A stretch of 64,000 nucleotides of DNA. Origin: a virus (lineage: Duplodnaviria > Caudoviricetes). The stretch lies in the IMG/VR virus record IMGVR_UViG_3300037067_007090, positions 23,831 to 87,830 of that record; one strand, written 5' to 3'. The notes beneath the pieces were generated by a model. It was not told where the DNA came from and made no database searches. It worked only from the letters and a program-made list of their open reading frames with translations. Below, piece by piece: positions 4,430 to 53,556 of the stretch (positions are counted from its first letter, which is position 1; the number at the start of each line of letters is the position of its first letter). The translations under genes were made by a program, and so were the position numbers.

Positions 4430-5422
4430 ATGACAAAAATCTTTTTCGCCGGAGATATGCGCAGTCCTTTTATACAAGGAGATGCAGAACTTTTAAAGGA
4501 AGATCACGATGTTTTTATTTTTAACACCCCGATCAAAAAAATGGATTTTCCGCTTTATCTATTTAAATGTTTTCAACAAGTTTTAAATATTAGAAAATCA
4601 AATCTCGTCTGGGTTTGGTTTGCAGATTGCCCGGCACTACCATTAGTTATTATTGCAAAAATATTTAATATACCCACAGCTGTGAATGTCGGTGGATTTG
4701 AAGTTTCTGGAATATCTGAAATTAATTATGGAAATCAACTTAAACCAATCCGTGGATATGTTTCAAGATGGATTATAAGAAATGCAACAGAAATTATTGT
4801 TCCTTCCCCCGTATACAATGTTAAAACATTAAAAGTTGGTATAGGAATAAAATTGATGGATAATACATTTGCATTGCCCGAAGACGATTATTATTTTGAA
4901 AATTATTACTTAACCCACACAATGGCTCATATAATCACAATTCCGAATTGGGTTGATACGGAAACTTGTGATATACCACTTCCACAAAAAGAAGATCTTG
5001 CTGTAACCGCCGTGTGTTCGAAACATGCGTATGCTTATAAAGGAATTTCAATATTTCAAGAAGCATCAAAAAATATTCTTTATAACACAAAAATATTAGA
5101 ACATCTCCCACGAAAAGAATACGAGGACTATTTGAAACGCGCCAAAGTCTATTGCCAACTTTCACGCGATGAAACATTTGGTATCTCACTTGTAGAGGCA
5201 ATGGCATATGGTTGTGTGCCTGTTGTTAGCGATAAAGGTGCTTTGCCGTGGATTGTAGAAGACACGGGTATTATCGTGCCTTATGGAGATGTTACAGCAA
5301 CTATTAATGCAATTAATAAAGCAATGACTATGGACGGTTCAAAAGCGCGTGAGCGCGCACGTTATTTCAGCCGTGAAAGAAAACAAGAATCGGTGAAACA
5401 ACTCATCAAGGAATTAATATGA
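4430..5422 (+). CDS. glycosyltransferase family 4 (GT-B)
   Basis: ETFGISLVEAMAYGCVPVVSD motif. Confidence 0.85.
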   Translation: MTKIFFAGDMRSPFIQGDAELLKEDHDVFIFNTPIKKMDFPLYLFKCFQQVLNIRKSNLVWVWFADCPALPLVIIAKIFNIPTAVNVGGFEVSGISEINYGNQLKPIRGYVSRWIIRNATEIIVPSPVYNVKTLKVGIGIKLMDNTFALPEDDYYFENYYLTHTMAHIITIPNWVDTETCDIPLPQKEDLAVTAVCSKHAYAYKGISIFQEASKNILYNTKILEHLPRKEYEDYLKRAKVYCQLSRDETFGISLVEAMAYGCVPVVSDKGALPWIVEDTGIIVPYGDVTATINAINKAMTMDGSKARERARYFSRERKQESVKQLIKELI

Positions 5423-6591
5423 CACGTATTCTTATACTCGGAGACTACCCACTACCCAATGAAACAATAACCGGCGGAATAATGCGGTCAGTTTATTTAA
5501 CTGCCAATGCATTATCAAAATTGTGCCCAGAATATGACTTTCACGTATTGACAATCACGGATGGAATTGATAAATCTTTTGTGTCAATCAACAAAAATCT
5601 TGCAATCCATTATATCCATTTTCCTTTAAGAAACAAACCAATCTTGGTTCCAAAATTCCTTTCCAAGCAATTGATATTGCATGAAATAAATAAAATAAAA
5701 CCAGATTTAATCCACGCCAATGGTTCAAGCTGGGAATATGGATACCCAGCAATTGCATATAAAAAATGTCCTGTTCTTATAACTGTTCACGGAGTGTCAC
5801 ACAATGAATCAAAATATTGGTCTGGTCTAAAAGGCGCGTGGCATCGTATAAGTTGTTGTAAAATGGAATCACACATCTTTGAAAAAATGGAAAACGTTGT
5901 TGCCGTTTCTTATTATGTAGAAAGAGAAATGAGAAAATGCATATCGAAAACACAATATGGAAACTATGCGATACATGTAGATGTCATTTCCAACCCGGTT
6001 GATCCATGTTTTATGGATGTTACAACAAAATACACAATACCAAATCTATTATTATATGTTGGGGGGATTGAAAAACGAAAAGGATTAGACGTTCTTATCC
6101 GATCACTTTATATAGTTAAAAAACAAATGCCTTATATAAAATTGAATGTCGTTGGTTCGATACGAAGTCCTATATATTGCGCAGATATAATGAAACTCAT
6201 TTCCGATTTGGATTTAATTGACAATGTGAATTTTGTTGGAAAAGTAAGCGATACATTATTAATGAAAGAATATTCTAATGCATCAATATATATTTCACCT
6301 TCATATGAAGAATCAGAGGGTATAACCATTCTTGAAGCGATGGCTACAGGAACACCAGTAATAGCAACCCGGTCGGGCGGTTCGGAAAGTATAATAAAAG
6401 ATGGTGTTGATGGATTGTTGGTAAAAAACGGAAACCACGAAGAACTAGCATTTAAGATTTTAATTTGTGGTGATGCATTAAAAGAGCAACTTGGAAAAGG
6501 AGGGAGGGAAACAGCATTGAAATATTTACCGGAGAATATTGCGAAACAGTATATGGAAGTTTACAGGAGGTTGTTGAAATGCCAAAACTAA
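5419..6591 (+). CDS. glycosyltransferase family 4 (GT-B)
   Basis: PDLIHAN, YVGGIEKRKG, ESEGITILEAMATGTPVIAT. Confidence 0.9.
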   Translation: MTRILILGDYPLPNETITGGIMRSVYLTANALSKLCPEYDFHVLTITDGIDKSFVSINKNLAIHYIHFPLRNKPILVPKFLSKQLILHEINKIKPDLIHANGSSWEYGYPAIAYKKCPVLITVHGVSHNESKYWSGLKGAWHRISCCKMESHIFEKMENVVAVSYYVEREMRKCISKTQYGNYAIHVDVISNPVDPCFMDVTTKYTIPNLLLYVGGIEKRKGLDVLIRSLYIVKKQMPYIKLNVVGSIRSPIYCADIMKLISDLDLIDNVNFVGKVSDTLLMKEYSNASIYISPSYEESEGITILEAMATGTPVIATRSGGSESIIKDGVDGLLVKNGNHEELAFKILICGDALKEQLGKGGRETALKYLPENIAKQYMEVYRRLLKCQN

Positions 6592-7223: not shown

Positions 7224-7408
7224 AAGATGGTTATAAATTAACAATATTTTTAAGTGTTATAGTAATAATATTGGCAATATTTATACATGGCACAGTTATT
7301 CATTTAACACAAGTGGGTGAATTTCAAAAATGTGTAAATGCAACACTTTCTGATCCACTCTATTCCACATTTGCATGTGATAGACCGGGATGGTGGTTTG
7401 GAATATGA
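7220..7408 (+). CDS. small membrane protein
   Basis: one hydrophobic segment; ATGA overlaps with neighbours. Confidence 0.6.
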   Translation: MKDGYKLTIFLSVIVIILAIFIHGTVIHLTQVGEFQKCVNATLSDPLYSTFACDRPGWWFGI

Positions 7409-9882
7409 AAATCCTTTTTATCTTACCTAGATTTAATAAAGGTTTCGGAACTGTCTACAATGAAAACGAAACCGGTATTGACTATGATTACTTAATGCCC
7501 GTGGGAATGCCCTACATCGCTTCTTATCTCAAACACAATGGATGTGATGTCTCGGCATTAAACCTTAATCACACACCCGGATTGGTTAAAAACATTGTAC
7601 AAAAAACTATTACTGACACTCACTATGATTTCGTATTCACCGGCACAATTTCCATAATGTATCCCGCTGTGCGCGATATAATAAAATATGTACACGAAGC
7701 ATCTCCCAATACAATAACCGTCTGTGGTGGAGGTATCATTTCGTCTAACCCCGAACTAATGATGAAACTTATTAATCCACATTACGGGATTATTTTTGAG
7801 GGTGAAGAAACAGCATTAGAGTTGATACAAACTATTGAGAAGGGGCAATCTGTGGAAAATGTTAAAGGTATTATTTATTCAACAACATGGCCTATTCCAA
7901 CGTTTACTAAAACACAACCACGCCCCCAAATCAAAAACCTAGATGCACTCCCGTTTCCCGATCTTGAACTATTCGGTTATTCCGAATACTTGAAACACCA
8001 AGAACTTGGCGGTTGGAATCAATATCCACGAGATTATCCACCGCGCCCGTATATGTTGGTTTCAGCGCGCGGTTGTTCGGCAAATTGTTTATCAGGAGAC
8101 ACTTTAATTGCAACCACAAATGGCAACATTAAAATAAAAGATCTCGTTGGGCAGACCCCAAAAGTTCTTACACGAGATCCAATTACAAAAGATGTATTAT
8201 ATGCACAGTCCTCAATAGTTGCTAAAACCGGAGAAAATAAAAATCTCGTTAGAGTTTCATTTAAAGAGGGGGGATATATTGACTGTACACCAGATCACAA
8301 ATTTGTAAAATTTTTAAACTCAAACCAATATGTCCCGTTGAGAGAGTATGAAACGGAAGCACAATTTTTGAGACCCGGTGATAGTGTTCGTGCTGTTCAT
8401 TATAAATTGAGCACCACTGGTTACACGATTATAATATGGGGAAGGAAAAAGCATCGATATCAGCACACTTTAATAATGGAATCTATGATTGGAAGGAAAC
8501 TCTCACAATACGAAAGGGTTCATCACAATGATCATAATCAAATAAATAATGTTGAAAAAAATTTAACACTTACCGACAATCATAAACATATCCCAACTTA
8601 CCATCCAGAACTATCACAACGTATGAAAGATAATAATCCCGCAAAAAATCTACCACACGAATTTTTTGTGCAACGCGGAAAAGAACAACGTGGTAAAGTT
8701 CGCTCTATAGAATCCAGAATGAATTATAAAGCATCCAAAACGGGGAATAAAAATCCGATGTGGAAAGGTGGTTGTGGAAGAACAACAAAATCCCGTATAC
8801 CCGGGCAACCAGATGTAAATCACGTAGTTAAAAGCGTTGAACCACTAGATGGGTTACATAATACGTATTGTTTAGAAGTGCCGGGATATAATTGGTTCTA
8901 TGCCAACGACGTTCTTGTTCATAATTGCACATTTTGCTACCACACAACCGGCCCAAAATACCGCTACCGTTCCGCAGAAAATATAATGTCAGAAATCAAA
9001 TACGTTGTTGAAAAATACCACATTAACTTCTTCACATTTCTTGACGAATTGTTTTCATACGATAAAGCGCGCGCACTTGAATTCTGCCGACAATTTAAAG
9101 AATATCAGAAAACCATTCCGTGGCGAATTGAAATGTATTGCAATCTGCGCGTTGATTGCGCGGACGCAGAACTTCTTGATGCCATGAAATCCTGTGGGAA
9201 TGTAGTTATCGGATTAGGTCTCGAAAGTTACAACCAAAAAGTTCTCGATTCAATGCGAAAACACATAACACCCGCGCAGATTGAAACCACGCTTGGAATG
9301 ATCGCAGAAAGAAATCTTGTTCCGCAAGGGGGGTTCATCTTTGGAGATAATGCAGAAACACTTTCCACCGCACGCACTACTTTACAATTCATTCGAGAAC
9401 ACCCACATCTTTCACGAGGTGGTTTATTTATGGGCTTTATTATTCCGTTTCCCGGGACCGCTATTTATAAACATGCTTTACAAAATGGAATCATAAAAGA
9501 TGAAATAGAATTTATTAATAAATTGACAAGCACGGATTATAATTATGATAACGTATGTAATCTCACAAATTTATCAGATGAAGATTTTGACACGTTGAAA
9601 AATGAAGTGTTCACTTTAAAATACACAGCAATTCCCGTATCTGTTCCAACAAAAATAACCAATGATGAAATCTTTGTAAAATGCCCCCATTGTGGGAAGA
9701 TGCAAACTTATAAAACAACTAAACGACCACATGCGCAATTCAGCGTGGGGGTAATTTGTAATAACCCCGAATGTAATGGAAGATTTGAAATGGGCACACG
9801 ATATATTCAATTGGGGAGACTCGCTGTAAAGTTATTGGGATTTAAAAGAATGCGACGGATTAAAAATTGGATGGGGATTTGA
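7405..9882 (+). CDS. cobalamin-binding radical SAM protein (class B methylase-like), intein-containing
   Basis: N-terminal B12-binding domain (PVGMPYIASYLK, VCGGG, FEGEETALEL); spliced motif RGCSAN/CTFC = CxxxCxxC; FLDELF, GLES, GFIFG. Start placed at ATG 7405 (MKILFILP). Confidence 0.9.
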   Translation: MKILFILPRFNKGFGTVYNENETGIDYDYLMPVGMPYIASYLKHNGCDVSALNLNHTPGLVKNIVQKTITDTHYDFVFTGTISIMYPAVRDIIKYVHEASPNTITVCGGGIISSNPELMMKLINPHYGIIFEGEETALELIQTIEKGQSVENVKGIIYSTTWPIPTFTKTQPRPQIKNLDALPFPDLELFGYSEYLKHQELGGWNQYPRDYPPRPYMLVSARGCSANCLSGDTLIATTNGNIKIKDLVGQTPKVLTRDPITKDVLYAQSSIVAKTGENKNLVRVSFKEGGYIDCTPDHKFVKFLNSNQYVPLREYETEAQFLRPGDSVRAVHYKLSTTGYTIIIWGRKKHRYQHTLIMESMIGRKLSQYERVHHNDHNQINNVEKNLTLTDNHKHIPTYHPELSQRMKDNNPAKNLPHEFFVQRGKEQRGKVRSIESRMNYKASKTGNKNPMWKGGCGRTTKSRIPGQPDVNHVVKSVEPLDGLHNTYCLEVPGYNWFYANDVLVHNCTFCYHTTGPKYRYRSAENIMSEIKYVVEKYHINFFTFLDELFSYDKARALEFCRQFKEYQKTIPWRIEMYCNLRVDCADAELLDAMKSCGNVVIGLGLESYNQKVLDSMRKHITPAQIETTLGMIAERNLVPQGGFIFGDNAETLSTARTTLQFIREHPHLSRGGLFMGFIIPFPGTAIYKHALQNGIIKDEIEFINKLTSTDYNYDNVCNLTNLSDEDFDTLKNEVFTLKYTAIPVSVPTKITNDEIFVKCPHCGKMQTYKTTKRPHAQFSVGVICNNPECNGRFEMGTRYIQLGRLAVKLLGFKRMRRIKNWMGI
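8086..8925 (+). mobile_element. intein (280 aa) with HNH homing endonuclease
   Basis: begins CLSGDT, block B DCTPDHKF, HNH core RVHHNDHNQINNVEKNL, ends ANDVLVHN followed by Cys+1. Confidence 0.92.
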
Positions 9883-29044: not shown

Positions 29045-31398
29045 TATCTTTGGAAAACACATTGTTCATTCCGCGCGCGCTTGAAAACAGAGTTAAACTC
29101 ATTAAGTTAAAACAGAAATCCAAAATTCCCGACCAAGATACTTGGAGTGTCGAAAATAGCTTCTTCCCGAATGATACAGAAATCATAGATCATGTATCTT
29201 CGGGAAAAAATTATGGTATAATCCCAATCAACAATACGATAGTAATTGATTGTGATACCGAAGAATTATATTCGACAATCGGGGGACATTGGAAAAAAAC
29301 ACTTACTGTGATTACTGGGAGAAGTGGAGTTATCGGAAGACATTTGTTTTTCGATTGCCCCGACTCCCCAAAAGATAAAATATTAATAAATGATCCAAAT
29401 AACCCAAAAATACAACTCGGGGATATAAGGGGCAGCGAATCGCCATTTTATACAGTTGGCGCTGGAAGCATTCATCCAGATACCGAAAGAAAATATAAAT
29501 ATAAAGACCCGAATGCTTCTTTGATTTCTATATCTTGGAAAGATATTCAATCTGAATTGCTCGACAAATTCAAATTAAAAATCAAAGAAGAAATACCAGT
29601 CAAAACAAAAAACATTGCACAAAACCCGTTGACGAATAAACTAAATTTGCGAATAGAAAATTTCGCTATGCCAACCGGTAAAATCGAAAGGCGCGCAAAT
29701 GGAGATATACAAGGCACGCATCCAATACATGGTTCCACTACAAAAATGAATTTTGCTATAAATTCGAATAAGAATGTCTTTCATTGTTATCGTCACGACG
29801 TTGGTGGCGACCCGATATCTTGGATAGCGTATGCACATTGTGGTGTTCCAGAAGAAGATTGTAATAAATTAACAGATGATCAATTTAAAGAAGTTGTTGA
29901 ATGGTTACGTGACAATGGTTTTGAAAAGGAACTTAAAGAACTAGACGAAAAATATTCACCAAACTTAAATGTAGAAATAATAGATGAAAGATCTATAAAT
30001 AATATTATAAATCAAAAACCCCCTACTAAAACCACAACTACAAACAATCCACCAATTGTTGGTAACACAATCGACATGGAAATAAAAGCTGCAAATGACA
30101 GATGTAAACTTCCAAATTTTCCCGAAATTGACGAAGGGTTATTTAAAGAATATATAGAATTAGGTAAACGAGTGTCATATTCTTTGCACGAATTTCACTT
30201 TGCGGCATTGCTTTCAATTGCATCAATGGCTATAAAAAGAAGAGTTCTTATACAAGTAGGGATGACAAAAATTTATACTAATGTATTTGCAATGGTGGTC
30301 GGTCATACAACAATTAGTGGAAAGTCCGTAGCATGTAATATGGCCATCGATTCATTTTCCCAAGCAATCATCCATGAAGAAAACTTAAATAAATTACAAT
30401 CAACCAATCTTCTCCGTGGGACAATAAGCGAACCCGCACTTATTCAAGGATTGGATGAAACATATAATTCCCTTTGGTATTACGATGATTGCGCTGGATT
30501 TTTTGAAGATGCTGGTAATTGGAATGCACATGTTCTTGGAACATTATGCAGTTTATATGATTGCACTGCAATTGAAAGAACGCTTTCAAAACGCGGAAAA
30601 AACGGGGAGAAATATAAATGGGAATGCCCAACACCATTTATGTCTATATTATTCAATACAACGAATAAAGATATTGAAACTGTCGCAAGCGCACGGTTGT
30701 TTTCATCCGGATTTTTCCCACGATTAATGTGGTTTTATGGTCAGGGTGGAACACCGAGGAAGAACGAAAATGTATCTGAAAGCGATAAGAAGATTACCAA
30801 CAATGTGTTTAAAGAGATTGTTGGGTTAAGAACAAAACTTGAAATATATCCAGATGATGGTATTATATTTGGGGTATGCAACGAAATAGAAGATTGGAAA
30901 CTTAACTCAACGCTTGGAAAACTTGGTGTTGAAGACGAATCATATAGAACATCAATTTCAAGAGGGTTTATACATGCGTATAAAATTGCAGTGATCCTTA
31001 CTATGGTCGATAAAGAATTCCAAAGAAAAAATATACCGGAAAGGTTAAAAAAACTTGAACCCGGTGAAATATATCAACCAATAGTGCTAACAATTCCCCA
31101 TAAACACGCAATGATGGCAATAAAGATAGTAAACGATTATCTTATACCACGTATGATGTATGTATACGATCTATGCAATAATTCGGATATGAAAAACCAC
31201 CAAGTGATTGTAAGAAAGGCTATAATTGGATTTGGGGGTTCCGTGGAAAGAACCAAACTTTTAAAGAAGACGCATCTTAACAGCAAAGACCTTAATACTG
31301 CATTGAATACTATGGTAGAATCTGGAGAAATAAAGATGTATGAGAATAAAAAGACTGGTAGCGATAAACCAACAACATTTGTTATCTTAAATGATTAG
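29041..31398 (+). CDS. primase-polymerase (Prim-Pol) fused to DUF3987-like helicase domain
   Basis: NYGI...VIDCD...GRHLFF...GDIRG...VGAGSIHP; degenerate Zn-binding HPIHG...FHCYRH; SGKS Walker A-like motif; C-terminal wHTH-like region. Confidence 0.85.
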   Translation: MISLENTLFIPRALENRVKLIKLKQKSKIPDQDTWSVENSFFPNDTEIIDHVSSGKNYGIIPINNTIVIDCDTEELYSTIGGHWKKTLTVITGRSGVIGRHLFFDCPDSPKDKILINDPNNPKIQLGDIRGSESPFYTVGAGSIHPDTERKYKYKDPNASLISISWKDIQSELLDKFKLKIKEEIPVKTKNIAQNPLTNKLNLRIENFAMPTGKIERRANGDIQGTHPIHGSTTKMNFAINSNKNVFHCYRHDVGGDPISWIAYAHCGVPEEDCNKLTDDQFKEVVEWLRDNGFEKELKELDEKYSPNLNVEIIDERSINNIINQKPPTKTTTTNNPPIVGNTIDMEIKAANDRCKLPNFPEIDEGLFKEYIELGKRVSYSLHEFHFAALLSIASMAIKRRVLIQVGMTKIYTNVFAMVVGHTTISGKSVACNMAIDSFSQAIIHEENLNKLQSTNLLRGTISEPALIQGLDETYNSLWYYDDCAGFFEDAGNWNAHVLGTLCSLYDCTAIERTLSKRGKNGEKYKWECPTPFMSILFNTTNKDIETVASARLFSSGFFPRLMWFYGQGGTPRKNENVSESDKKITNNVFKEIVGLRTKLEIYPDDGIIFGVCNEIEDWKLNSTLGKLGVEDESYRTSISRGFIHAYKIAVILTMVDKEFQRKNIPERLKKLEPGEIYQPIVLTIPHKHAMMAIKIVNDYLIPRMMYVYDLCNNSDMKNHQVIVRKAIIGFGGSVERTKLLKKTHLNSKDLNTALNTMVESGEIKMYENKKTGSDKPTTFVILND

Positions 31399-36792: not shown

Positions 36793-36873
36793 AAACGGAA
36801 TAAATGGGATTTTAGATATTTTTTGTTATTTTTATATAGAAACATTTATATACTATCAATTACAATATTGTAA

Positions 36874-36984
36874 CACACTTTGATAAAGTGATTTTGTAAT
36901 GCAATGTGATGTGATGTGTTGTCATGTTCTGTATTGTTTTGTGATGTAATGTTATCTGGCGTATTGTAATGTTTTCTACTGTAT
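36874..36984 (+). ncRNA. hairpin + TGT-NN pentamer array (18 units); putative guide-like RNA
   Basis: BRE/TATA AGAAACATTTATATA ~36838-36852; hairpin CACTTT-GAT-AAAGTG 36876-36890; units TGTAA TGCAA TGTGA TGTGA TGTGT TGTCA TGTTC TGTAT TGTTT TGTGA TGTAA TGTTA TCTGG CGTAT TGTAA TGTTT TCTAC TGTAT (36895-36984). Confidence 0.65.
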
Positions 36985-38508
36985 GGATCGAGTGAGATTT
37001 AATATCTCACTCTCATTTTTACGTTCGTACAGACTCCATGCTCCGGAAAAAACTTCTGTATATTCGTCATTTACCCTTTTTACAATATTTTTCTTCTCGA
37101 TGGAATCTAATCCAAACCAACCATCCGCTTTCCCCAAAGGTCCATCTGCGAGGATATATCTATTAGAATAGTTCATAATACACATATATTCTTCTTTGTA
37201 TGCCGGCAACGTACTTACAATTGTTCGGTTTGGATTCATTCTCTGTATAACTAATGGTGCGACGTAGCGGCAACTACTATTCGTAGAAAAATAGTACGGA
37301 GCCGATCCCGTATCGAGATACAAAAGTGTATTTTCTTTAGATAAATTAAACTTTATTTCAATTGCATTTGCATTTTCATTGAAATAATTGTTCATCTTCA
37401 ACTCCTGAACGCCGTAATTTTGTTCTAGACCCCAGATTGGTTGTGGACTATAAAGAATGCACCACATTGCGAATAGAACGAGGATTGATGCGGATACAAC
37501 ATTTTCGCGCTTAATTTTTTTAGTTATCCCTCTTTCCCTTGGTGTGTCTATCTCGTAAAGCACAATACCGACGATGGCAGGGAGAAGAAAAACGTAATAC
37601 TGGTACGCAAAACTCTCGCTTTGATAAAAAACCACAAATAACGGGGCTAAAAATGAAATTACAAACCATTTTGCGCGCGGATCGCGAATATGATTTTTTA
37701 ACCACACGCCACTGTATATAATTCCGATGCCAATACAGGGAATATATATACTCATCGAGATTACTGTTGCAATACCGGTTACTCCGATTTGCCCTATCCA
37801 ATCATATTCACCCACGTGACTTAAAATTGGAGCCATGAGAATGTCAGGGATAATTTGTGGCCATACAAAAATATCTGCCGCGAGGAATGCCAAACCCATT
37901 AATATGAAACCAATCACACCACGAATCAAATCTATATGTTTATTAAAAATCAATACGATACACACGGCGGAAACTATAAGGCACCCCGTTGTGCCTTTAA
38001 CCAACAATACCCAAATTAAAAGTGCGCCGGCGATATAGTGCCAAAGATTACTCTTCTCCACGAAGAGCGCGCATGAAATCATTGCGAAAATAATTGCTAA
38101 AAATTCAGCCTGTAAAATATTTAAATTGAGCGCGCAGAACATTCCGAAGAAGCAGAGGAGGAACGAGTATTTTACCTTTAATATATTTTTTGAAAATAAC
38201 CACGATGCAAAAATAACTAAAGCGACCGCAACACATTTAATTATCGGTTCCTGTAAGGCGTGATTTGAGAATGGGACAAAGATATTAGTAAACAACGCAA
38301 TGAGAAATTCACATATGTGATTCCCAACCGGTTTTATTTCCCAAAAACCGCCGTAAACATTTTGTGGGAATGATAGGTATTTTATCCCTAATTCCTCAAT
38401 TCCGTAAAAAATCCGAACGTCATTAGTAAGAGGCGAAAGTATAGAACCAACTGCCACTATTGGAAACATTATAAAATATAACAACTTCTCGAAAATCGTA
38501 AACGCCAT
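36976..38508 (-). CDS. polytopic membrane protein, possibly GT-C-fold glycosyltransferase
   Basis: many TM segments, acidic residues in the first loop (NDVRIF..IE), EIKP motif, soluble C-terminal domain. Confidence 0.55.
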   Translation of the reverse strand: MAFTIFEKLLYFIMFPIVAVGSILSPLTNDVRIFYGIEELGIKYLSFPQNVYGGFWEIKPVGNHICEFLIALFTNIFVPFSNHALQEPIIKCVAVALVIFASWLFSKNILKVKYSFLLCFFGMFCALNLNILQAEFLAIIFAMISCALFVEKSNLWHYIAGALLIWVLLVKGTTGCLIVSAVCIVLIFNKHIDLIRGVIGFILMGLAFLAADIFVWPQIIPDILMAPILSHVGEYDWIGQIGVTGIATVISMSIYIPCIGIGIIYSGVWLKNHIRDPRAKWFVISFLAPLFVVFYQSESFAYQYYVFLLPAIVGIVLYEIDTPRERGITKKIKRENVVSASILVLFAMWCILYSPQPIWGLEQNYGVQELKMNNYFNENANAIEIKFNLSKENTLLYLDTGSAPYYFSTNSSCRYVAPLVIQRMNPNRTIVSTLPAYKEEYMCIMNYSNRYILADGPLGKADGWFGLDSIEKKNIVKRVNDEYTEVFSGAWSLYERKNESEILNLTRSIQ

Positions 38509-41203: not shown

Positions 41204-41269
41204 AAATTAATTATTATTAACTTTTTTATTACCAAAAGATATAAATATTATTAAAGTTTATTATTATAT

Positions 41270-41362
41270 ACCGTTGTTGAAACGGGTTTGGTTGGGTAAG
41301 GTTTGTTTTGGTGCGGCAATGCCGGGCAAGGTATGTTACGGTTGGGTCGGTTTTGGTAAGGA
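41270..41362 (+). ncRNA. hairpin + GGY-NN pentamer array (16 units); putative guide-like RNA
   Basis: TATA-like AAAAGATATAAATA ~41234-41247; hairpin CCGTT-GTTGA-AACGG 41271-41285; units from 41285: GGTTT GGTTG GGTAA GGTTT GTTTT GGTGC GGCAA TGCCG GGCAA GGTAT GTTAC GGTTG GGTCG GTTTT GGTAA GGA. Confidence 0.7.
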
Positions 41363-41363
41363 A

Positions 41364-42470
41364 TTAAAACTTGGGTGAATTTTCCACCCAAGTTATTCTT
41401 CTATTCATCAAAAAATTCCAAATATATCCGATTACTATTCCTATAGCATTTCCTATTAAATAGTTTATTCCTACGAATGTTAGTGCCACCAAAACAGTAA
41501 CATTTATTATCATTGATCCAATACAGATTGAATTATAACTAAACATTCTGTGAAGGAATGATTTTTGGCATTTTGCTCCTTTAAATGTAAAATTATCATT
41601 CATTAAAAAATTTGTTATAATACTTATTTCTATCGCTAGGAAACTTGCAAAAACCAAAGGCGTATTAAAAACTTCTTTGAACACGGACAAACAAATCATA
41701 TTTGTTGCCACTCCGATAAGACCAACGATCCCAAATTTTACCATCTTTCTTAATTCTTCTCTTCCACGTCCGGGGAACAATGCATTATCAATAAATTGTT
41801 TTGCGAATTGAATAATTGTGGATTTCTTTAATTTGCTTTCACCCACTTTTCTGTTTGTGAAAACATACGGTAATTCTTTCACTATAGTCCAATGGCATTT
41901 TGAAAGAATCTCCAATAAGATTTTATATCCACACCGTGGGTTTAATGAAGGTGTGTGCATTATTAAATCCTTTTTTGCTCCGAAGAATCCGGAAATTGGA
42001 TCGGTAATTTTCGGGAAAAGGAGGCGACCGAGGAATGTTGCCCCGAAAGAAATAACACGACGTTTTAAAGGCCAGTCTTTGATACCACCATTTGGCATAT
42101 ATCTTGACCCAATTGCGATATCTACATTATTGTTTTTTATTTCATTGAACATTGCAGGAATAATTTCTATTGAGTGCGATAAATCTGCGTCCGTCACTAC
42201 CACCACGTTTCCGCGCGCTTTATTTATTCCGGCAATAACAGATTGGGAAAGTCCCGGATCTTTTGTGCGCGTTATTAAAACCACGGGATACTTCCTAATG
42301 ATAAGATCGGTAACAATAAGTTGTGTCTTATCCGTGGAAGAATCATCGACAACGATTATTTCAAAAGTTATAGTGGTGAGACGAAGAGTATGAGAAATTT
42401 TTTGTATTGTGTTTTGAATGTTTTCTTCTTCGTTGTAAGTGGGGATGATTATAGAAAGAGATGGACGCAT
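41364..42470 (-). CDS. polyprenol-phosphate glycosyltransferase (DPM1-like GT2) fused to GtrA-like flippase domain
   Basis: IIIPTYNEEEN, VVDDSSTD, VTDADLSH, IGSRY, DPISGFF; C-terminal KFGIVGLIGVATN...NF..N..ITW. Confidence 0.9.
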   Translation of the reverse strand: MRPSLSIIIPTYNEEENIQNTIQKISHTLRLTTITFEIIVVDDSSTDKTQLIVTDLIIRKYPVVLITRTKDPGLSQSVIAGINKARGNVVVVTDADLSHSIEIIPAMFNEIKNNNVDIAIGSRYMPNGGIKDWPLKRRVISFGATFLGRLLFPKITDPISGFFGAKKDLIMHTPSLNPRCGYKILLEILSKCHWTIVKELPYVFTNRKVGESKLKKSTIIQFAKQFIDNALFPGRGREELRKMVKFGIVGLIGVATNMICLSVFKEVFNTPLVFASFLAIEISIITNFLMNDNFTFKGAKCQKSFLHRMFSYNSICIGSMIINVTVLVALTFVGINYLIGNAIGIVIGYIWNFLMNRRITWVENSPKF

Positions 42471-52161: not shown

Positions 52162-52241
52162 GCAACAGTAGTTTAACTGGGAAAACGTAAGTGAGGCATG
52201 CCATTTGACTTACATTGTTGGTTCGAATCCAACCCGTTGCA
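52162..52241 (+). ncRNA. tRNA-like element (80 nt) with 15-nt anticodon loop
   Basis: GCAACAG/CCGTTGC, D-stem GTTT/AAAC, TAAGT-(GAGGCATGCCATTTG)-ACTTA, GTTGG-TTCGAAT-CCAAC, A73. Confidence 0.65.
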
Positions 52242-52452: not shown

Positions 52453-53556
52453 ATGAATATGATTAGAACAATCAAGTTGAAACTAAATGTTTCTTCTGAT
52501 GCGAAGATATCTCTTTTTAAAACAATGAGAGATTATACAACCGCATTTAATATTTGTTCAACTTGGGGGTTTGATAATCATACTGCTAATAAGATAGATT
52601 GCCATAAATCAACTTATTATAAAATTCGGGAATTGATACCCAATTTTCCCTCTTCGTTGGTTCAGTGTGCAAGAGATGTTGCTTGCGCATCTTTGAAATC
52701 GGTAAAGTGTCGATATAAACCGATTCGTAAAGAACATTCGGCAATGTTATATAATTCGCAGGTTATTAGGGTTTGTTTGGAATCTGGTTACGCAACTATT
52801 GCTACTTCAAACGGTAGAGTAAAAGTTGAATTTATAGTTCCGAAGTATTATATACCATATTTAACGTGGAAAATTAAATCATCTACACTGTCTCTTCGTA
52901 AGACTGGCAATATGTTTTATTTGCATTGTCAGATTGAAACGAATACTCCCAAAATCATTCCCGATCAAATGGTTCTTGGAATCGATAGAGGCATTATTAA
53001 CATTGCGGTCTGTTCCGACAACACATTTTTTAATTCCCGGGCAGTGAAGAATACGCGGTCGCAGTACGCATATCTCCGAGCTCAATTACAGTCTAAAGGC
53101 ACTCGATCTGCTAAAAGAAAGTTAAAGAAACTTTCCGGTCGAGAAAGACGGTTTGTGACTGATGTTAATCACTGTATCTCGAAGCAAATTATACAAACCC
53201 AATATACAGTATTCGCTCTTGAAGACCTTACTAAAATTCGGGTACAAAAACGACGCGGGAAAATTTTTAATCGAAAATTGAACAATTGGTCGTTCTTTGA
53301 ACTTGAACAGTTTATCCGGTATAAAGCCGAAAATCTTGGCAAGAGGGTTATATTTATTGATGCTCGTTATACTTCTCAAAAATGTTCAATTTGCGGGCAT
53401 GTCTATAAAGGCAATCGTAATGGTTCCTCTTTTAAATGCTGTAAATGTGGATTTGAACTTCATGCTGATCTCAATGCTTCTCGTAATATAGCTCAAGATG
53501 GTATATCTGTTTTGAGTAGGCTGCCTGTCAACCAGCCAAATGTAGCGTGTCTCTGA
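52453..53556 (+). CDS. tnpB: IS200/IS605-family TnpB RNA-guided endonuclease
   Basis: RTIKLKL, RuvC-I LGIDRG, RuvC-II ALEDL, CSICG/CCKCG zinc finger, RuvC-III ADLNASRNI. Confidence 0.92.
   Translation: MNMIRTIKLKLNVSSDAKISLFKTMRDYTTAFNICSTWGFDNHTANKIDCHKSTYYKIRELIPNFPSSLVQCARDVACASLKSVKCRYKPIRKEHSAMLYNSQVIRVCLESGYATIATSNGRVKVEFIVPKYYIPYLTWKIKSSTLSLRKTGNMFYLHCQIETNTPKIIPDQMVLGIDRGIINIAVCSDNTFFNSRAVKNTRSQYAYLRAQLQSKGTRSAKRKLKKLSGRERRFVTDVNHCISKQIIQTQYTVFALEDLTKIRVQKRRGKIFNRKLNNWSFFELEQFIRYKAENLGKRVIFIDARYTSQKCSICGHVYKGNRNGSSFKCCKCGFELHADLNASRNIAQDGISVLSRLPVNQPNVACL

Follow-up and report, generated by a model that had tools for sequence, protein, structure and literature searches.

A candidate solo VIPR-type vrRNA gene with a U-G-U scaffold in an archaeal viral element

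Introduction

The closest described counterpart of the locus analyzed here is VIPR, composed of a minimal Cas7-like RAMP protein (Vipr) and vrRNAs, in which 9-16 YNNGG repeats precede an invariable, structured 3' tail (10.64898/2026.04.26.720920, 10.64898/2026.04.26.720927). In a complete locus, the vrRNAs are accompanied by a vipr gene, whose product combines an RRM core, a thumb, and a G-loop, and by an accessory vap gene for a DNA-binding protein, nuclease, or helicase; the vrRNAs are small RNAs of ~100 nt and co-purify with Vipr. Each NN pair of a vrRNA reads two bases of double-stranded DNA and leaves one out, which is usually the wobble base of a codon (10.64898/2026.04.26.720920), and rival mobile elements are thereby silenced at the level of transcription (10.64898/2026.04.26.720920, 10.64898/2026.04.26.720927). 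In addition to YNNGG, the discovery paper reported the alternative vrRNA repeats NNNGG, YNNNG, and NNNNG (10.64898/2026.04.26.720920). In the Vipr of Escherichia phage SUSP1, the exemplar of type II (PDB 36pp), H17 and D177 read G1 of the repeat, W178 stacks on G2, and the D177A substitution abolishes silencing (10.64898/2026.04.26.720920, 10.64898/2026.04.26.720927). VIPR was described in 2026, mostly from enterobacterial and Pseudomonas phages. Solo vrRNAs have also been found on vipr-null SUSP1-like phages and F5 satellites (10.64898/2026.10.15.759431); these phages are recent deletion derivatives of VIPR-positive Enterobacteriaceae phages, with vipr itself and other vrRNAs among their targets.

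Two further systems are comparable with the locus. Class 1 CRISPR crRNA bound on a Cas7 backbone would share with it a RAMP filament, a fixed periodicity, and regularly flipped bases; however, its period is 6 with one flipped base, and its contiguous spacers are acquired via Cas1-Cas2, whereas the locus analyzed here has no CRISPR repeat, cas gene, or RAMP. The TRAP sites of Bacillus resemble it in geometry only, with a triplet lattice separated by 2-nt spacers, a 5' stem-loop, and a terminator, but they comprise 9-11 (G/U)AG triplets in an mRNA leader that is bound by an 11-mer ring. A TRAP-like protein-binding lattice was considered and rejected, as the triplet is UGU, the TrpBP family (PF02081) is absent from the genome (the B. 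subtilis control was positive), and VIPR offers a closer counterpart.

Here, we describe a TGT-NN pentamer array located in a 64,000-nucleotide stretch of viral DNA, referred to below in its entirety as the window, and compare it with a second, GGY-NN array of the same window at 41.3 kb, with arrays of related viruses, and with TGT-NN arrays of human-gut phages. We consider it probable (roughly 0.6), based on comparative sequence analysis, that the TGT array is a VIPR-type vrRNA gene in which U-G-U replaces G-G-Y, and that it is a solo (orphan) gene.

Results

Anatomy of the TGT-NN array

The array lies on the + strand, preceded by a promoter-like element and a short hairpin and followed by a structured tail (Table 1). 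The BRE/TATA element, the hairpin, the 18 pentamers, and the order of their NN pairs had been listed in a first-pass annotation made from the letters alone, and direct reading of positions 36838-36984 confirmed all of them. Among the 18 triplets, 14 are TGT, two TCT, one TGC, and one CGT (unit 14, CGTAT); by column, the fixed triplet is T in 17/18, G in 16/18, and T in 17/18 units, with variable NN. The period-5 column score of the array is 47/60 compared with a window mean of 25.9 (sd 2.8), which places it 7.6 sd above the mean and makes it the maximum across the whole 1.27-Mb assembly. Six consecutive TGTNN units (at most one mismatch) occur eight times, always within this array, and never in 100 shuffles. 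The K-G-Y-N-N register proposed earlier for this array and the 41.3-kb GGY array holds for both, and they are the only two K-G-Y-NN arrays in the assembly.

The tail hairpin is present in both the MFE and the centroid structures predicted by RNA folding, and the fold of the array shows no excess stability over shuffles (z = -1.6 and -1.2). At Rfam gathering thresholds, five tRNAs and no other family were found in the window. As part of the vrRNA reading, and with the same likelihood, the locus would be a stand-alone gene for a predicted small RNA of ~145 nt.

Table 1. Features of the TGT-NN array, of its sister array, and of comparable gut-phage loci. Positions are those of the window, except in the last row.
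Feature	Position	Strand	Remarks
Archaeal promoter-like element	36838-36853	+	AGAAACATTTATATA (36838-36852); purine-rich BRE-like AGAAACA, TATA box TTTATATA, ~23 nt 5' of the hairpin
5' hairpin CACTTT-GAT-AAAGTG	36876-36890	+	At the predicted RNA start; copy in L140 identical
TGT-NN array	36895-36984	+	18 in-phase pentamers; direct sequence reading
Variable part, units 1-14 (putative guide)	36895-36964	+	NN = AA AA GA GA GT CA TC AT TT GA AA TA GG AT
Last four units	36965-36984	+	TGTAA TGTTT TCTAC TGTAT; kept in the L140 orthologue
3' tail	36985-37020	+	GGATC, hairpin GAGTGAGAT-TTAAT-ATCTCACTC (9 bp, 36990-37012), then TCATTTTT, a terminator-like T-run
510-aa membrane-protein gene	36976-38508	-	Convergent to the TGT array; no Pfam family
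Sister GGY vrRNA-like gene	41240-41392	+	TATA 41240-41247, 5' hairpin 41271-41285, 16 GGY-NN units 41285-41364, tail hairpin 41370-41392
Own GT2-GtrA glycosyltransferase gene	41364-42470	-	Pfam matches; mismatched (self-safe) allele of the target of the 41.3-kb guide
Gut-phage TGT-NN loci	L035 1185-1698; L041 5460-5987; L057 5119-5723; L062; L125 and relatives		IMG/VR

Genomic setting

The TGT array is located between convergent genes encoding proteins of 206 aa (+) and 510 aa (-) and on the same strand as the 41.3-kb array, as the first-pass annotation had stated. The stop codon of the 510-aa gene (36976-36978) falls inside the array. No same-strand gene is found downstream of the array, none of the neighbouring genes is a DNA-binding gene, and the ORFs flanking both arrays encode signal peptides or membrane helices.

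The assembly is a 1.27-Mb bin, a small archaeal genome with an archaeal 16S gene and 99.6% completeness, assigned to an order of DPANN-like organisms with ~1-Mb genomes. Within it, the window sits on an 87.8-kb contig (C3) encoding prim-pol, methylases, a Sak4-like ATPase, tRNAs, TnpB, and glycosylation genes. Since this contig is colinear with IMG/VR viral records, including a 46.6-kb relative (G316), the element is a large archaeal virus or provirus.

Window DNA with identical arrays was found in four metagenome DNA runs from three studies (landfill and groundwater) and in no RNA run, and the contigs of these runs contain no length or base variation in either array. Copy-number variation by slippage alone, named in the first-pass annotation as the pattern that would speak against a guide, was thus not seen in these runs; where the array does vary, in the related locus L140, the NN pairs differ and the triplet is kept. 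In co-occurring strains, metagenome contigs depart from the window sequence at ~36821 and 41357-41379, exactly at the outer edges of both vrRNA-like genes, which suggests that the inter-array block, or the RNA genes themselves, are swapped as units.

Arrays in related viruses

Approximately 50 related loci, gathered through homologues of the 510-aa gene and through viral records, were compared. Arrays occupy two positions: slot 1, downstream of the 510-aa gene and marked by the 69 homologues of its product, and slot 2, beside a GT2-GtrA gene, which is filled in the window and in L143. An orthologous TGT array is present at slot 1 in L140 and L194 (87% protein identity), with a promoter, 5' hairpin, and tail 86-91% identical to those of the window (91% between the window and L140 over 36814-36894). 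The L140 array comprises 13 units compared with 18 in the window and differs in its NN pairs and by whole-unit indels of 15 and 10 nt. Because the flanks are kept while NN has changed and the indels are multiples of 5, selection acts on the TGT phase, not on NN.

At the same slot, L142 and L155 contain GGY-NN arrays of 13 units and ~12 + 5 units, respectively. The 5' hairpins differ between arrays (CTCTGAT-TT-ATCAGAG in L142, ACACATT..AATGTGT in L155, and CCGTT..AACGG at slot 2), and all four slot-1 arrays, TGT or GGY, share the tail consensus GGAWY + AAGTGRGAT..ATCYCACTT + TCATTT; the hairpin of this tail also falls in the 3' coding end of the 510-aa gene, so that coding may account for part of its conservation, which does not count as independent evidence. 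A TATA box precedes each 5' hairpin by ~23-30 nt. Having a TATA box and hairpin of its own, every array looks like an independent, rapidly evolving transcription unit of small size, with nothing but its phase and its fixed triplet held constant. BLASTN of both arrays against 60 relatives returned AT-rich chance matches only, and none of 315 other genomes in the order to which the bin belongs contains the 8 x TGTNN pattern.

In many relatives (L141, L143-L146, L149-L152), slot 1 contains an HNH endonuclease gene directly downstream of the 510-aa homologue and no array. This replacement marks slot 1 as a cargo-exchange hot spot.

Sister GGY arrays and the 1-nt-skip code

With the related loci (231 kb) as the search space, every array was scored for skips of 0-3 bases, and 200 unit-order shuffles served as the null. 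When one base is skipped after each NN pair, the L143 guide (slot 2) matches the GT2-GtrA gene of L140 at 24/24 positions (null maximum 20), and the first 12 units of the L155 guide (slot 1) match the N-terminal LTNDVRIFYGVE codons of the 510-aa gene at 24/24, with targets present in at least five relatives (L149, L153, L173, L146, and L201); the whole L155 guide reaches 27/34 against a null maximum of 25/34. Units 2-13 of the 41.3-kb guide of the window match the 3' end of the L140/G316 GT2-GtrA gene (motif WNFLANRKTTWR) at 23/24, and the whole guide reaches 25/32 (null maximum 23/32). In all three sister guides, the skipped base is codon position 3 (wobble), and the targets lie on either strand, whereas skip rules 0, 2, and 3 raised no sister guide above its own shuffle null. 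The carriers' own alleles match the sister guides at 16-18/24 only; at the site of the 41.3-kb guide, the own allele scores 18/24 compared with 23/24 for L140.

Units with a degenerate scaffold (GTTTT, TGCCG, and GTTAC) still pair in register in the sister guides. Since both TGCCG, with its TGC scaffold, and the GTT units of the 41.3-kb guide do so, T at position 1 is tolerated. The last 3-5 units of the sister guides never match their targets and thus act as a tail; the last four units of the TGT array, which L140 keeps, are probably also tail and not guide. On the basis of these matches, the sister GGY arrays look like functional VIPR guides, directed at conserved motifs in the glycosylation genes of relatives and each coupled to an allele that resists it.

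The guide genes adjoin the carrier's own mismatched target allele (both minus-strand genes of Table 1; L140 2064-3158), an arrangement resembling that of poison and antidote. The GT2-GtrA gene is split in two in L199 and L200. On contig C14, the L142 guide finds a 16/16 match in AT-rich intergenic DNA, which was judged to be due to chance.

Target search for the TGT array

Scored with the 1-nt-skip rule against the related loci, the TGT array reached 22/36 at best, under the shuffle mean of 23.6, and the L140 TGT array reached 20/26, a score attained by 44 of 200 shuffles. No target for the TGT array was found in its own genome (skip 0-3), in more than 45 related loci (guide sub-windows included), or in 40 relatives at up to 3 mismatches. 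Peptide-level patterns of the array matched none of the proteins of the collected loci, and other offsets, lengths, registers, and skip rules gave no signal. The search for targets in codon register proposed in the first-pass annotation yielded nothing in the relatives and chance seeds only in IMG/VR (units 3-12, units 9-18, and the L140 guide) and GTDB genomes; five seed matches of the TGT guide extend to 24-27/36, and these are located in unrelated bacterial or giant-virus genes. The suggestion that NN corresponds to codon positions 1 and 2, with the wobble base skipped, was thus borne out in part: it is exactly the published VIPR code and is seen in three GGY arrays, including that at 41.3 kb, but the TGT array itself matches no target in any collection searched. 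Few relatives of this virus are present in the collections (three in IMG/VR), so the absence of a target is weak negative evidence, and the rival genomes relevant to the TGT array may be missing from them.

Absence of a recognizable Vipr in the element

Pfam RAMP families had no match in the element at E <= 10, and Pfam searches of 20 viral ORFs returned nothing RAMP-like. A profile of 159 Viprs, built from a 3,055-cluster family found with the Vipr of locus L178, did not match the 1.27-Mb bin, although it recovered the L178 Vipr used as a positive control. HHalign comparisons with all ORFs of C3 and the 46.6-kb G316 gave probabilities of at most 5%, and a six-frame Vipr search of three related IMG/VR records was empty. 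Searches for Vipr candidates with regular expressions for the G-loop yielded only a dCTP-deaminase-like false lead. As no vipr was found in the element, its arrays are best called solo (orphan) vrRNA-like genes.

The L178 locus (4561-6032 of metagenome contig Ga0315291_10018219) is a complete, GC-rich VIPR locus, in which a GGC-NN array lies directly upstream of a 222-aa Vipr and ~190 nt of GGC/GGT-NN arrays lie downstream. The G-loop of this Vipr reads CGVGEWRP, and its thumb and G-loop region aligns to the SUSP1 Vipr (PDB 36pp) with E = 5e-4. The same contig encodes a distant homologue of the 510-aa protein of the window.

TGT-NN arrays beside Vipr homologues in gut phages

Scanning of IMG/VR for 8 x TGTNN returned more than 119 loci, ~50 of whose arrays are not microsatellites. 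In at least five human-gut phage lineages, 2-3 TGT-NN arrays stand beside a homologue of Vipr, a Cas7-like protein of ~225 aa. These arrays comprise 9-20 units with variable NN, each array being followed by a short GC hairpin, and are located between a phrog_15946-like gene and the Vipr homologue; RecT and SSB are encoded nearby, and the genes lie on the strand opposite to TGT. The protein contains the G-loop GIGSGRTSGYGRY and ends C-terminally in GFGxGIGSGRTSGYGRY. Its HMM matches the L178 Vipr with E = 1.7e-6 (HHalign probability 67% over the G-loop region), and its best sequence match in the PDB is the SUSP1 Vipr, a weak one (E = 0.16). An AlphaFold model of the protein (pLDDT 76, pTM 0.71) finds the Cas7 chains Csm3 and Cmr4 with a probability of 1.0.

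Compared with GGY-type Viprs, the aligned gut-phage Viprs carry Asn in place of the beta-1 His and GSGR in place of GEWR (GVGEWR to GIGSGR). If the residues are equivalent as aligned, these alterations fit a changed specificity at repeat position 1. Given that G1 is read by H17 and D177 in SUSP1, and that D177A abolishes silencing there, a GGY-type Vipr may not load UGU RNA. The adjacency of gut-phage TGT-NN arrays to Vipr homologues argues that the UGU scaffold is a natural VIPR variant. Neither 1 Mb of sequence from gut-phage loci nor two IMG/VR scans contained a target of the gut-phage TGT guides, Rfam searches of eight gut-phage loci returned nothing, and BLASTP revealed no similarity between the ORFs of the window and those of the gut-phage loci.

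Discussion

The reading of the TGT array as a VIPR-type guide gene draws on its sharing a slot, a promoter type, and a 3' tail with GGY arrays that decode. For the TGT locus itself, we infer transcription, protein loading, and guiding by the UGU array. According to the proposed mechanism, a Cas7-like Vipr would polymerize along the RNA with one protomer per pentamer, sequester each fixed triplet, and present the NN pairs, which would read double-stranded DNA at positions 1 and 2 of successive codons and skip the wobble base; such binding would silence transcription of a rival mobile element. The Vipr would have to be supplied in trans to the solo vrRNA, since the virus encodes no recognizable Vipr.

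In common with VIPR, the locus is viral and combines 5-nt repeats, a fixed triplet, hypervariable NN, and a structured 3' tail, and the sister arrays of its virus family additionally share the wobble-skipping code, the targeting of conserved rival-element genes on either strand, and mismatched self alleles. It differs from VIPR in that the canonical repeat is YNNGG, whereas the 18 UGU units fit only the alternative YNNNG; moreover, the element lacks vipr, and each RNA has its own archaeal promoter and 5' hairpin. The term undescribed variant, used in the first-pass annotation for the TGT scaffold, is therefore overstated, as YNNNG is a published alternative (10.64898/2026.04.26.720920), and the locus is not a new kind of system, because the VIPR papers anticipate both non-GGY repeats and orphan guides. 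The second specificity class that the annotation also suggested for this genome is possible. With solo vrRNAs, the locus shares a putative guide gene on a vipr-less element and a Vipr that would presumably be provided by another element. Self-safe alleles and guides aimed at relatives, as known for the published solo vrRNAs, are seen with the 41.3-kb array and with that of L143. In contrast to the phages carrying solo vrRNAs, however, the window derives from an archaeal virus lineage whose bin is a DPANN-like genome; close relatives positive for VIPR were not seen, and glycosylation genes are the targets of the sister guides. The TGT locus would extend the idea of solo guides to a large archaeal virus lineage without Vipr. 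In this virus family, guides adjoin the resistant allele of the glycosylation gene silenced in relatives. The gut-phage arrays (L041, L057, and L062) have the UGU scaffold, variable NN, and a hairpin after the array in common with the window, but they belong to bacterial phages, with 2-3 arrays per locus and an adjacent Vipr homologue on the opposite strand.

The main rival to a solo vrRNA, although in our judgment an unlikely one, is a decoy or sponge: the UGU RNA would be transcribed and bound by Vipr, or by another oligomeric RNA-binding protein, with one subunit on each pentamer, much as TRAP occupies its 11 triplets, but it would guide nothing and would instead titrate or divert the silencer of a rival (anti-VIPR). 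A decoy would be consistent with the lack of a target under any rule, with 18 units where 9-16 have been published, with a scaffold uniformly unlike that of the GGY arrays with proven targets, and with a virus devoid of its own Vipr; freely drifting NN pairs would likewise yield the variation seen between the window and L140. Satellites are also reported to redirect the VIPR of their helper by solo vrRNAs (10.64898/2026.10.15.759431), but those redirecting RNAs still guide, namely to decoy DNA sites. In slot and tail, the TGT array matches arrays that do guide, a pure sponge needs no strict register joined to a vrRNA tail, and, as far as other oligomeric proteins are concerned, TRAP is missing from the genome.

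The remaining explanations dispense with an RNA acting in trans. The TGT/ACA sites, spaced by half a helical turn, could form a lattice for a viral DNA-binding protein involved in partition, packaging, or origin function, which we regard as improbable. In its favour, the TGT strand of the gut-phage arrays runs opposite to the neighbouring genes; however, the TGT or GGY strand of each array bears a correctly spaced TATA box, a 5' hairpin, and, as a terminator-like element, a hairpin with a T-run, and the sister arrays decode to gene targets in trans, unlike a cis-acting site. Least probable, to the point of being nearly negligible, is that the array is a slippage repeat without function or an ORF for a short Cys-rich peptide (ATG at 36899, 16 codons). 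Tandem Repeats Finder does report periods of 5, 15, and 20 for the array, and any TGT-rich array allows a short ORF to be read. Nevertheless, slippage copies whole units, NN included, whereas here NN entropy is high and TGT is fixed, and no slippage products appear among the four metagenome runs; as for a peptide, the 25-nt difference of L140 destroys any frame, and the ORF has no ribosome-binding site.

Whether or not the TGT array guides, the uniform U-G-U scaffold and the gut-phage Viprs with changed G1 residues together offer a handle on the recognition of the fixed triplet. They also prompt one to ask whether scaffolds and proteins form orthogonal pairs, a matter of importance for viral competition as well as for engineering. 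We put forward tentatively, as a possible but rather speculative extension of the solo vrRNA reading, that UGU-NN constitutes a second, orthogonal VIPR channel read by G1-altered Viprs, and that Vipr-less archaeal viruses carry both UGU and GGY solo guides, together with resistant alleles, thereby exploiting two different Viprs that rivals or the host provide; an anti-VIPR sponge would be the alternative role of the UGU RNA. Should the array prove inert or a decoy, it would provide a natural example of an anti-VIPR RNA.

Several other features of the element and its relatives were recorded. Ro60/TROVE genes (with a vWA domain) are found a few kb from the array slot in L140 (10228-11763) and L141 (9739-11274), as well as on bin contig C13 (~30150-30845), and in the window a tRNA-like gene (52162-52241) whose anticodon loop spans 8 nt (ARAGORN anticodon 'gcat') lies immediately upstream of the TnpB gene (52453-53556). 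The Ro60/TROVE genes and the tRNA-like elements of the window suggest a viral Ro60/Y-RNA-like module; despite the proximity of TROVE genes to arrays in L140 and L141, a link between Ro60 and the pentamer arrays was sought and not found. On contig C2 (84500-84780), ~180 nt of GAAG/GGAAG-rich repeats precede ~75 nt of GTT/GTTTT repeats and a T-run in a non-coding stretch that does not follow the period-5 K-G-Y pattern. Finally, at 7390-9882 of the window, a B12-binding radical SAM gene is interrupted by an inserted intein (Pfam Intein_splicing).
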